A stretch of DNA of 12,098 nt, taken from the IMG/VR virus record IMGVR_UViG_2541047691_000007; one strand, given 5' to 3'. The position numbers and the translations under genes were made by a program. The DNA comes from a virus. Taxonomy: Duplodnaviria > Heunggongvirae > Uroviricota > Caudoviricetes. The notes under the pieces are model-generated. The model had not been told where the DNA came from and made no database searches. It saw only the letters and a program-made list of their open reading frames with translations. Of the stretch, positions 7,676 through 9,304 are shown piece after piece; the first letter of the stretch is position 1, and each line of letters opens with the position of its first letter.

Positions 7676-8140
7676 CTACTTAATGCACTGAGTGCGGATA
7701 TACTCCTGCGCCCCTTCCAGTTGCATCTGCATCGTCATCAGCCGCTCTCTGAGGGTGAAATAATCCCGTTCAGCGGTGTCTGCCAGTCGGGGGCTGGTTG
7801 CATTATCCACGCCGGAGGCGGTGGTGGCTTCACGCACTGACTGACAGACTGCTTTGATGTGCAACCGACGACGACCAGCGGCAACATCAGCGCGCAGAGT
7901 TTCATTTTCAGCTTTCGCATTGGCTAATTCTCTCGAGTACTTTGCATCGAGCGCAGCAACATCACGCTGACGCTGCTGCATGTCAGCGATGGTGGCGATC
8001 GCCAGCTTCAGCTCACTGACTTTTTTATCACGCTGTTCTTTGTAGGCGATGGCGTTATCACGGTAATGATTGACCGCCCACGACAGGCAGACGATGATGC
8101 AAATAACCAGAGCATAAATAATCGCGGCGACTCTGCTCAC
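7676..8140 (-). CDS. Rz: Rz i-spanin (inner-membrane spanin), lambda-like
   Basis: Track ORF starts at TTG 8155; probable start is GTG at 8140 overlapping the endolysin stop, with GGGGGA SD, giving (M)[29 protein letters not shown]..., closely resembling lambda Rz as I recall it. Confidence 0.88.
7738..7920 (-). CDS. Rz1: Rz1 o-spanin (outer-membrane lipoprotein) embedded in the +1 frame of Rz
   Basis: 60-aa ORF wholly inside Rz; lipobox LVVVGC and a PPPPP run ([60 protein letters not shown]), near-identical in pattern to lambda Rz1. Confidence 0.85.
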
Positions 8141-8670
8141 TGATCTATCCCCCAACAGGCTAATGCGCTTTCCTGGTCACGACGAATAACCTGTCCATAG
8201 CAGTTATTTGAACGTATGCGGCAATCGCGCCCACCATCTTTTATCCACCAGCGAATCGCCTCGCATGCGCCCTTACGATCACCGGCATTCAGCCGCTTAT
8301 AAAACGTCGACGGGAAACACTTACCGGGGCCAATGTTATAGGGACAAAATGACGCGATACCCGCTTTCTGTGGTTCGGTCAGTGGCACTTTAATATTGCG
8401 CTCCACCCATGCCAGCGCCTTATCCCGTTCAATGGCGTTAACCTGGTCGCATTTTTCCTTCGACAGTTTCATACCGGGAACAACGGGTTTTCCATCCACC
8501 ACCGTGGCACCCCGACAGATGGTCCAGATGCCGGCCCCATCGCGGTATGCCGTTGTGTGGTTACCTTCTTTTTCATCCAGAAACTGGTCGAGAATATCAG
8601 GCGCGGGCGCACCGACGGCAATCAGTGCCAGAACGGCAGCCGACAGGCCGTATCTGATTTTTGCGTTCAT
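8137..8670 (-). CDS. R: SAR endolysin (glycoside hydrolase family 24 lysozyme with N-terminal signal-anchor-release domain)
   Basis: ATG at 8670; Gly/Ala-rich weakly hydrophobic N-terminus ([18 protein letters not shown]) typical of SAR domains; T4-lysozyme-like catalytic spacing E-x8-D-x5-T in [16 protein letters not shown]. No clear SD upstream. Confidence 0.85.
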
Positions 8671-8733
8671 GGATATTTATCAGGATTTATCGGTTTCTGC
8701 CCACGGACAGGTTTATCTGTTCCGGTCAGTGAC

Positions 8734-9084
8734 TTAAGGTTGTGATTCCGGAGGAGTCTTCAGAGAACCAGTAATTCTTCCTGGTAGCTTTCCTTTGTAG
8801 GTTATCCACACATTCTGCGCATCTAAAATTACGGGGCGCTTTTCCGGCGGCTGCTCATCCCCTTCACATAACCCGGCAGCAACATCCAGGAAGACCTGTC
8901 TGATGCTCCTTCTGGCTGCTGCCTCATAAAACTCCAGCGCGGCACCTTCAACACGGTCCAGCGAGATGTCCAGGTCAAAAATTTCACCGTCAAAGCGTTT
9001 TTTGTCCCGTAACGCTAAAGTTACCGTAACTTTATTCTCAAAATTGCGGATCCCTTTCACAATCAGTTCATAGTTTTGAGTCAT
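8734..9084 (-). CDS. DUF1327-like phage protein (YdfR-like) inserted between holin and endolysin
   Basis: ATG at 9084 four nt after the holin stop, SD GGGGAGAG inside the holin 3' end; N-terminal half (MTQNYELIVKGIRNFENKVTVTLALRDKKRFDGEIFDLDISLDRVEGAALEFYEAAARRS) resembles the ydfR-type gene found between holin and lysozyme in E. coli cryptic prophages, from memory. Confidence 0.6.
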   Translation of the reverse strand: MTQNYELIVKGIRNFENKVTVTLALRDKKRFDGEIFDLDISLDRVEGAALEFYEAAARRSIRQVFLDVAAGLCEGDEQPPEKRPVILDAQNVWITYKGKLPGRITGSLKTPPESQP

Positions 9085-9088
9085 TGAA

Positions 9089-9304
9089 TTACTCTCCCCG
9101 TGCAGCCTTACGCTTGTCTTCTCTGATTTTGAAGTACAGATTTGTCAGATAAGTCAGGAAGCCCAGAACCAGACTCCCCAGTACACCAATCGCAGCCCAC
9201 TGTGAAGGACTGACCTGATCAAGCCACTGTAAAAACCAGTAGCCAGCACTGCCTGCGGAGGTGCCGTAGGCAATGCCTGTTGATATTTTTTCCATCTGAT
9301 ACAT
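9089..9304 (-). CDS. S: Class II holin / pinholin, phage 21 S-like, with dual-start motif (M-Y-Q-M-E-K)
   Basis: Track ORF 9089..9376 has a 24-codon extension overlapping an intrinsic terminator. Starts at 9304 (MYQMEK...) or 9295 ([68 protein letters not shown], 68 aa), which matches my recollection of S21. Confidence 0.85.

Follow-up and report, generated by a model that had tools for sequence, protein, structure and literature searches.

The DUF1327 gene ydfR as a candidate accessory passenger of a lambdoid lysis cassette

Organization of the lysis cassette

The lysis cassette described here lies at positions 7676-9304, on the minus strand, of a stretch of 12,098 nucleotides (nt) of phage DNA (Caudoviricetes; IMG/VR record IMGVR_UViG_2541047691_000007), referred to below as the window; the gene of main concern is ydfR, which in this cassette is interposed between the genes of the holin and the endolysin. 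The cassette comprises five genes, all on the same strand, encoding the holin, YdfR, the endolysin, Rz and, embedded within the latter, Rz1 (Table 1). The genes were assigned by matches to Pfam and PHROG profiles, which agree with each other, and were cross-checked against the RefSeq annotation of Escherichia coli PMV-1, the locus of which is 99.3% identical to the window. The same genes are called there, with the sole exception of Rz1, which is unannotated in PMV-1. A preliminary description, made from the sequence of the window alone, had proposed the same five identities, including Rz/Rz1 of the lambda type, and both the profile matches and the agreement with PMV-1 support them.

Read from its sequence, the cassette is a standard and complete lambdoid lysis set, with a holin of the pinholin family, a lysozyme of the signal-anchor-release (SAR) type, and an Rz/Rz1 spanin. 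This gene arrangement is already known, already annotated, and extremely common. The mosaic character ascribed to the cassette in the preliminary description is also evident, with the holin resembling EssD, the YdfR core and the endolysin resembling their counterparts in the Qin prophage, and Rz/Rz1 resembling those of lambda, whereas the spanin of Qin is different (RzpQ); its mosaicism is of the kind that is ordinary for lambdoid phages. Across a set of 88 related loci, one and the same holin-YdfR-endolysin block is joined to either of the spanin types. Scans of the whole window with Rfam models and for tRNA genes gave no matches.

Table 1. Features of the lysis cassette, followed by its surroundings in the window
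Feature	Positions	Strand	Basis or remark
Holin, S21-family class II (pinholin type), 71 residues	9089-9304	-	PF04971 (Phage_holin_2_1, "Bacteriophage P21 holin S"), E 1.9e-35
ydfR, 116 residues	8734-9084	-	PF07041 (DUF1327), E 2.2e-42, 143.6 bits against a cutoff of 25
ydfR core domain, residues 1-72	8869-9084	-	PF07041, alignments
ydfR C-terminal module, residues 73-116 and stop codon	8734-8868	-	Alignment with K-12 YdfR
Shine-Dalgarno-like GGGGAGAG in the last holin codons	9092-9099	-	Direct reading
Spacer between ydfR and endolysin, 63 nt	8671-8733	-	Direct reading
Endolysin, RrrQ-type phage lysozyme, 177 residues	8137-8670	-	PF00959 (Phage_lysozyme), E 3.1e-25
Rz i-spanin, 154 residues	7676-8140	-	PF03245, E 3.8e-49; raw open reading frame 7676-8155
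Rz1 o-spanin lipoprotein, 60 residues	7738-7920	-	PF06085, E 6.4e-20; different frame within Rz
Terminator-like hairpin	9343-9369	-	Consensus scan and direct reading
AB5 toxin gene pair	9769-10500 and 10536-10943	-	A subunit: PF02917, E 6e-14
Antiterminator Q	11257-11628	-	
HNH endonuclease	7283-7633	-	
Small terminase, P27 family	6653-7135	-	
Large terminase	4896-6653	-	
Major capsid protein, 405 residues	1698-2915	-	

Core and tail of YdfR

The interposed gene is ydfR, and its product of 116 residues belongs to the DUF1327 family, with phrog_406 matched over positions 1-113 of 114. Residues 1-72 are identical to those of YdfR from E. coli K-12 in 59 of 72 positions (82%), and there is no similarity after approximately residue 74. 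The Pfam model PF07041 is of the K-12 type and is matched end-to-end only by proteins with K-12-type tails, which the protein encoded in the window does not have. The likeness of the N-terminal half to ydfR-type DUF1327 genes, proposed in the preliminary description, is thus confirmed, while the remark made there that the C-terminal third looks different holds in part. This region is indeed unrelated to the K-12 tail, but it is not unusual, since phrog_406 is matched over its full length and the C-terminal module of the window protein (…EKRPVILDAQNVWITYKGKLPGRITGSLKTPP…) is found in almost every one of the 120 best-matching clusters of homologues. It is the majority allele of YdfR, and 86 of the 101 phage records with YdfR cover at least 80% of the query.

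Stand-alone relatives of 72-76 residues, found in a profile search, align without gaps to residues 1-72 of YdfR, with Tyr53 and Glu54 invariant in all of them; therefore, the evolutionary unit of DUF1327 is the core of 72 residues. In the model of this protein predicted with AlphaFold2, the core consists of three β strands (residues 5-14, 18-27, and 34-43) followed by a helix (residues 50-73), in a β-β-β-α arrangement, with values of the predicted local distance difference test (pLDDT) of 66-85. In turn, residues 70-116 are modelled with low confidence (pLDDT ~41). YdfR includes no hydrophobic or membrane segment, the maximum Kyte-Doolittle hydropathy over 15 residues being 0.91, and the protein is acidic, with an isoelectric point of 5.5; it is predicted to be a soluble protein of the cytoplasm.

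The core is under purifying selection, with a ratio of nonsynonymous to synonymous substitution rates (dN/dS) of ~0.25, and values of 0.24-0.64 were obtained for the C-terminal module, in which substitutions are few. Alleles of the Stx type, 114 residues long, share 62% overall protein identity with YdfR of the window. In the comparison with the allele of an Stx2a phage (L003 4347-4691), the synonymous divergence dS is 1.7 in the core of ydfR and only 0.2 in the C-terminal module, which points to recombination near codon 72, that is, to intragenic mosaicism of ydfR. Longer forms of YdfR, with 176-183 residues and more, carry extra C-terminal extensions past the "KTPP" motif, and some relatives (P0187, P0192, P0070, and P0094) have tandem double DUF1327 cores or an internal duplication of the core.

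Junctions flanking ydfR

The junction between the holin gene and ydfR reads GGGGAGAG-TAA-TTCA-ATG, with a gap of 4 nt and with the Shine-Dalgarno-like run placed inside the 3' end of the holin gene. This tight coupling had been noticed before, and direct reading of the sequence bears it out; the gap measures 4 nt in all 86 loci in which it was determined. In phage PA2, which has no ydfR, the same GGGGAGAG site precedes the endolysin gene, whereas here it precedes ydfR. The ATG codon of the endolysin gene in the window follows an AT-rich stretch with no Shine-Dalgarno motif (…CCTGATAAATATCC-ATG). The gap between ydfR and the endolysin gene amounts to 63 nt in the 73 loci with the 116-residue form, whereas values between -83 and 452 nt were measured with the other forms. 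Further downstream, the stop codon of the endolysin gene overlaps the GTG start codon of Rz (position 8140) as GTGA, and RefSeq and the sequence agree on this start. The possibility that the 63-nt spacer contains a structured regulatory RNA was also considered and was rejected, since the segment folds no better than shuffled sequences (z = -0.18 in the window and z = -0.07 in an Stx2a phage).

Such an arrangement of the junctions could mean that ydfR acts mainly in cis, with its open reading frame serving as a spacer that captures the ribosome-binding site embedded in the holin gene, leaves the endolysin gene with no Shine-Dalgarno sequence of its own, and retunes the ratio of holin to endolysin. 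The use of GGGGAGAG by the endolysin gene in PA2 and by ydfR here, the AT-rich sequence in front of the endolysin ATG, and the variable distance between ydfR and the endolysin gene next to a fixed holin-ydfR junction would all be consistent with this explanation. However, the low dN/dS of the core and the residues that remain invariant across relatives only 25-30% identical indicate selection on the protein itself, the DUF1327 core is also found in contexts other than lysis, as described below, and K-12 YdfR has a measurable binding activity (PMC13232886). Taken together, we give a predominantly cis effect a slim chance.

Distribution of ydfR and its positions in late operons

DNA similar to ydfR is present in 4261 of 5426 complete E. 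coli genomes (~79%), with up to nine copies per genome and with a query coverage of at least 80% in 1903 of them, and at least 593 viral contigs in IMG/VR encode YdfR. Clustering at 90% identity yields 311 clusters for the family in a set of 5.8 billion proteins, and at 50% identity it has 86 representatives in a set of 1.84 billion. In a scan of one genome per species, ydfR was found only in Escherichia, in Shigella, and in two contigs of metagenome-assembled genomes; the YdfR family is phylogenetically narrow. A copy of ydfR 100% identical to that of the window occurs in strain 20Ec-P-124.

The holin gene is followed by ydfR in all 88 loci examined, with the gene of the 177-residue endolysin next wherever the contig extends that far. 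The conservation of the gene between holin and endolysin in related prophages, on which its proposed role had been made to depend, is thus found within Escherichia. Nevertheless, YdfR is encoded in 101 phage records, as against 359 records with this type of endolysin (at least 80% identity). A strict link of YdfR to the 177-residue endolysin type was rejected, since most of the phage records with that endolysin have no YdfR. Additionally, distant DUF1327 cores, in the form of stand-alone proteins of 72-94 residues, are located between the tail genes M and L (L014, L017, and L018); others adjoin the tail gene I in L013 and in L104, the latter with J on the downstream side, or have Q on one side and an unrelated holin on the other (L106, L107, and L015). 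On the evidence of these sequences, ydfR appears as an optional gene that is not confined to lysis cassettes.

These observations bear directly on the proposal, made in the preliminary description, that ydfR might be a lysis-timing or accessory factor. In its explicit form, YdfR would be a dedicated regulator of lysis by the pinholin and the SAR endolysin, either a timing factor or a cytoplasmic antiholin-like partner, with the holin's charged C-terminal tail or the not yet exported endolysin as its target. The position of the gene, fixed in all Escherichia-type loci, its 4-nt coupling to the holin gene, and purifying selection on the protein are consistent with such a function, and according to the supplementary tables of Paradis-Bleau et al. 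(2014) the Keio ydfR mutant was rated envelope-defective in a screen with chlorophenol red-β-D-galactopyranoside (CPRG). The phenotype recorded in those tables concerns the K-12 gene (L001 5055-5366) and may be polar, with the kan cassette reading into rrrQ. A dedicated role in lysis is disfavoured because ydfR is optional, PA2 having the same types of holin and endolysin directly adjacent and DLP12 having no ydfR, because the distant cores are found elsewhere in late operons, including tail clusters apart from the lysis genes, and because the protein is soluble and has no membrane segment. We consider such a role unlikely; "accessory" is a fair label for the gene, whereas lysis timing is not favoured. 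The optional presence of YdfR, and its occurrence outside lysis cassettes, also argue against lysis-timing assays as the sole focus.

In the relatives, DUF1327 genes are very often trailed by a small convergent open reading frame, encoding 70-104 residues on the opposite strand; where an endolysin gene comes next, this frame often occupies the gap of variable length in front of it. Such loci are L108 2501-3040 (phage Evi), L109 2001-2718, L095 3001-3766, L098 3001-4131, L004, L013-L016, and L104-L107. The convergent partners represent several unrelated families of unassigned function, namely phrog_25324, phrog_10490, phrog_6806, and an open reading frame annotated as DUF1823; the partner in phage Evi is of the phrog_25324 family, and the 88-residue product in L095 is annotated as DUF1823-containing in PhiR12_2_star. 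The phrog_25324 partner of Evi is 59-65% identical to those of L004 and L015, the adjacent DUF1327 cores being merely 31-36% identical. A tblastn search of the window with seven partner proteins detected no convergent partner or its remnant, and PADLOC models gave no matches for YdfR, for its longer forms, or for the convergent partners.

Another explanation of the variable presence of the gene is that ydfR benefits the lysogen, either as a stress gene or, functionally speaking, as a moron. It would be expressed by the resident prophage under particular conditions and would assist, for example, in the exclusion of other phages or in survival of stress or antibiotics. Presence of ydfR does vary between otherwise collinear cassettes, as in the comparison with PA2 and DLP12, and convergent partners on the opposite strand, common in the relatives, are typical of lysogen-expressed cargo. 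Two weak hints point the same way, namely the enrichment of a CFT073 ydfR probe with the sigma-S polymerase in vitro and a threefold rise of the minimum inhibitory concentration of streptomycin caused by plasmid-borne ydfR in one screen. The Qin cluster has also been reported to be cold-induced (PMC13232886). However, the other marks of a moron are missing in the window, where a consensus scan found no promoter or terminator flanking ydfR and where the GC content of the gene (0.45-0.53) is similar to that of its neighbours in the cassette. No convergent partner accompanies the window allele, YdfR matches none of the PADLOC defence models, and RNA-seq of K-12 in standard growth gave almost no ydfR reads (PMC13232886). 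A function of this kind seems improbable to us.

Holin, endolysin, spanins, and neighbouring genes

The holin is 83% identical to EssD of K-12, which is of the S21 type, and 77% identical to EssQ, and it has no similarity to lambda S. With ~70 residues and two hydrophobic segments, the first of them rich in Gly, Ala, and Ser, it has the features of the S21 family. The earlier assignment as an S21-type pinholin is therefore upheld at the level of the family, and by this family match the protein is predicted to form small depolarising pinholes. Its N terminus (9293-9304) is MYQMEK, compared to MKSMDK in EssD, EssQ, and S21. Both Met1 and Met4 are present, but the longer product does not include the extra Lys2 that in the S21 paradigm (MKSM motif) marks the antiholin versus the holin. 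The MYQM variant of the start is also found in many relatives of this holin.

The endolysin is 93% identical to RrrQ of K-12 and only 34% identical, over 147 residues, to RrrD, which is of the R21 type. On these values, the candidate identity of the protein as an orthologue of R of phage 21 was rejected. The residues of the catalytic triad, Glu35, Asp44, and Thr50 (E35-X8-D44-X5-T50), are all present, and Glu35 aligns with the corresponding glutamate of RrrD and R21. The hydrophobic N-terminal segment, comprising approximately residues 8-24 (8599-8649), is SAR-like, rich in Gly and Ala, with a Kyte-Doolittle maximum of 2.15. Relatives of the endolysin in the Protein Data Bank include 3hde, 3hdf, and 4zpu, and the literature search found no experimental paper on the 177-residue type. 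The assignment as a SAR endolysin, made in the preliminary description, finds support in the lysozyme match, the triad, and the N-terminal segment; the label is reasonable at the level of sequence, and Sec-dependent export, tethering to the membrane, and release upon depolarisation are predicted for this protein. The claim that the holin and the endolysin are the matched pair known from phage 21 stands only in part, since the holin is of the S21 family and the SAR features are retained, but the endolysin is of the RrrQ/PA2 type. The spanins, in turn, are close to those of lambda (84% identity for Rz and 90% for Rz1), with the lipobox LVVGC in Rz1, and are arranged in the embedded manner of lambda, with an N-terminal transmembrane domain in Rz and the lipoprotein Rz1 encoded wholly within Rz in another frame.

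The terminator-like hairpin, located 38 nt upstream of the start of the holin gene, has a stem of 10 base pairs, six of them GC, and is followed by the TTTTTTCTTTC T-run. Expression of the lysis genes should thus depend on read-through mediated by Q, as judged from the presence of this hairpin. Between the gene of the antiterminator Q and the holin gene, in the same slot that is taken by stx in Stx phages, lies a pair of AB5 toxin genes, with the hairpin just after them. The A subunit of the toxin is an ADP-ribosyltransferase similar to pertussis toxin S1, and the equivalents in PMV-1 are annotated in RefSeq as a scabin-related ADP-ribosyltransferase and a subtilase-family AB5 binding subunit. 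The GC content of the toxin genes is ~0.38-0.42, as against ~0.5 in the lysis cassette. On the other side of the cassette, the gene of an HNH endonuclease is directly upstream of the small terminase gene, which is followed by that of the large terminase; this group looks like the usual HNH-terminase packaging module. The open reading frame of the major capsid protein is intact in the window, while its equivalent in PMV-1 is marked as frameshifted in RefSeq, so that PMV-1 itself is not the origin of the window.

A possible role of YdfR

An indication of what YdfR might do comes from a recent study of the K-12 protein (PMC13232886, 2026), in which a fragment comprising residues 1-72 came up three times in a bacterial two-hybrid screen and was reported to bind RNase E's catalytic domain. 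The full-length K-12 YdfR interacted with Rne 1-597, and Rne 1-598 co-purified with Strep-YdfR together with DNase-resistant nucleic acid, that is, RNA. Beyond this study, the literature search found ydfR or DUF1327 mentioned only in passing. The boundaries of the interacting fragment are exactly those of the conserved core as delimited here from the alignments. Because the core of the window protein is 82% identical to that of K-12 YdfR, we infer that it would bind RNase E in the same way.

The reading that we prefer, and in which we place moderate confidence, is that ydfR is an optional accessory passenger of the late operon, probably targeting a host factor, and not a necessary part of the lysis machinery. 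The sequence of the junction and the lack of any promoter or terminator close by suggest that ydfR, having no promoter of its own, is expressed together with the holin from the Q-dependent late transcript. Its translation would proceed via the ribosome-binding site in the last codons of the holin gene, a site that would serve the endolysin gene where ydfR is missing. The core of YdfR would then bind a cytoplasmic factor of the host, the candidate being RNase E's N-terminal, catalytic half, perhaps along with RNA, and would modulate RNA turnover late in infection, with no action on the membrane or the cell wall. The tail past residue 72 would be an exchangeable module. As a side effect, the insertion of ydfR, which parts the endolysin gene from the ribosome-binding site of the holin gene, probably lowers or uncouples endolysin translation.

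Several observations weigh against a passenger directed at a host factor. The interaction with RNase E was seen only with the K-12 allele and under overproduction, overexpression of YdfR altered few transcripts, and the authors could not rule out that the co-purified RNA came from a contaminant (PMC13232886). The data on RNase E cover the K-12 allele only, and the C-terminal module of the window protein is poorly predicted. Additionally, the strict position of the gene and of its junction with the holin gene would also be expected from a function linked to lysis.

We can speculate further that the DUF1327 core is a mobile cargo of the late operons of lambdoid phages, inserted at the holin-endolysin junction, between Q and the holin, or beside M/L and I/J, often together with a convergent open reading frame, and that it binds RNase E's catalytic domain to reprogramme RNA decay as the lytic cycle draws to a close, with the exchangeable tails diversifying its targets or partners. 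In this full form, the proposal is a long shot.

The cassette itself is routine, and thousands of E. coli genomes have it annotated, so that little is added by flagging it. In turn, few E. coli prophage genes without a known function are as common as ydfR. It also occurs in phages that convert to Stx1a or Stx2c, and in some that convert to Stx2a, and it would be expressed along with the lysis genes through which the toxin is set free. If the interaction with RNase E proves to be physiological, YdfR would be an example, from temperate phages, of a late-expressed modulator of host RNA decay.

Comparison with known systems

The closest counterpart of the cassette in K-12 is found in the Qin prophage (essQ-ydfR-rrrQ-rzpQ/rzoQ), which is like the window in the order of genes, in the 4-nt gap between the holin gene and ydfR, and in the location of the Shine-Dalgarno sequence in the end of the holin gene, as well as in the close similarity of the endolysin and of the YdfR core. 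However, YdfR of Qin consists of 103 residues, with an unrelated tail after approximately residue 72, and the stop codon of its gene overlaps the start of rrrQ (ATGA), whereas the longer form in the window is followed by the 63-nt spacer. The spanins differ as well, being of the RzpQ (DUF2514) type in Qin and of the lambda type in the window. Another K-12 prophage, DLP12 (essD-rrrD-rzpD/rzoD), which stands here for cassettes that combine a holin of the phage 21 type with an endolysin of the R21 type, shares with the window the S21-family holin, a lysozyme with an N-terminal hydrophobic segment and with Glu35, Asp44, and Thr50, and Rz/Rz1 of the lambda type, but it has no ydfR, so that essD abuts rrrD, and the endolysins are just 34% identical.

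Phage PA2 (Sepvirinae) has an S21-family holin and a 177-residue endolysin 93% identical to that of the window. It differs in the absence of ydfR, the endolysin gene following the holin gene after 4 nt via the same GGGGAGAG site, and in the presence of an antirepressor gene between R and Rz. This insertion in PA2 (L101 2309-2872) represents a second cargo slot in the same type of lysis cassette. In many Stx1a and Stx2c phages, in some Stx2a phages, and in H-19B, a YdfR of 114 residues is encoded in the same slot as in the window, with the same 4-nt gap.

Functional parallels to the binding of the catalytic half of RNase E by K-12 YdfR are the phage-encoded modulators of RNase E, namely Dip (gp37) of phage phiKZ, gp0.7 of T7, and Srd of T4, small proteins that target this RNA-decay enzyme of the host in infection.

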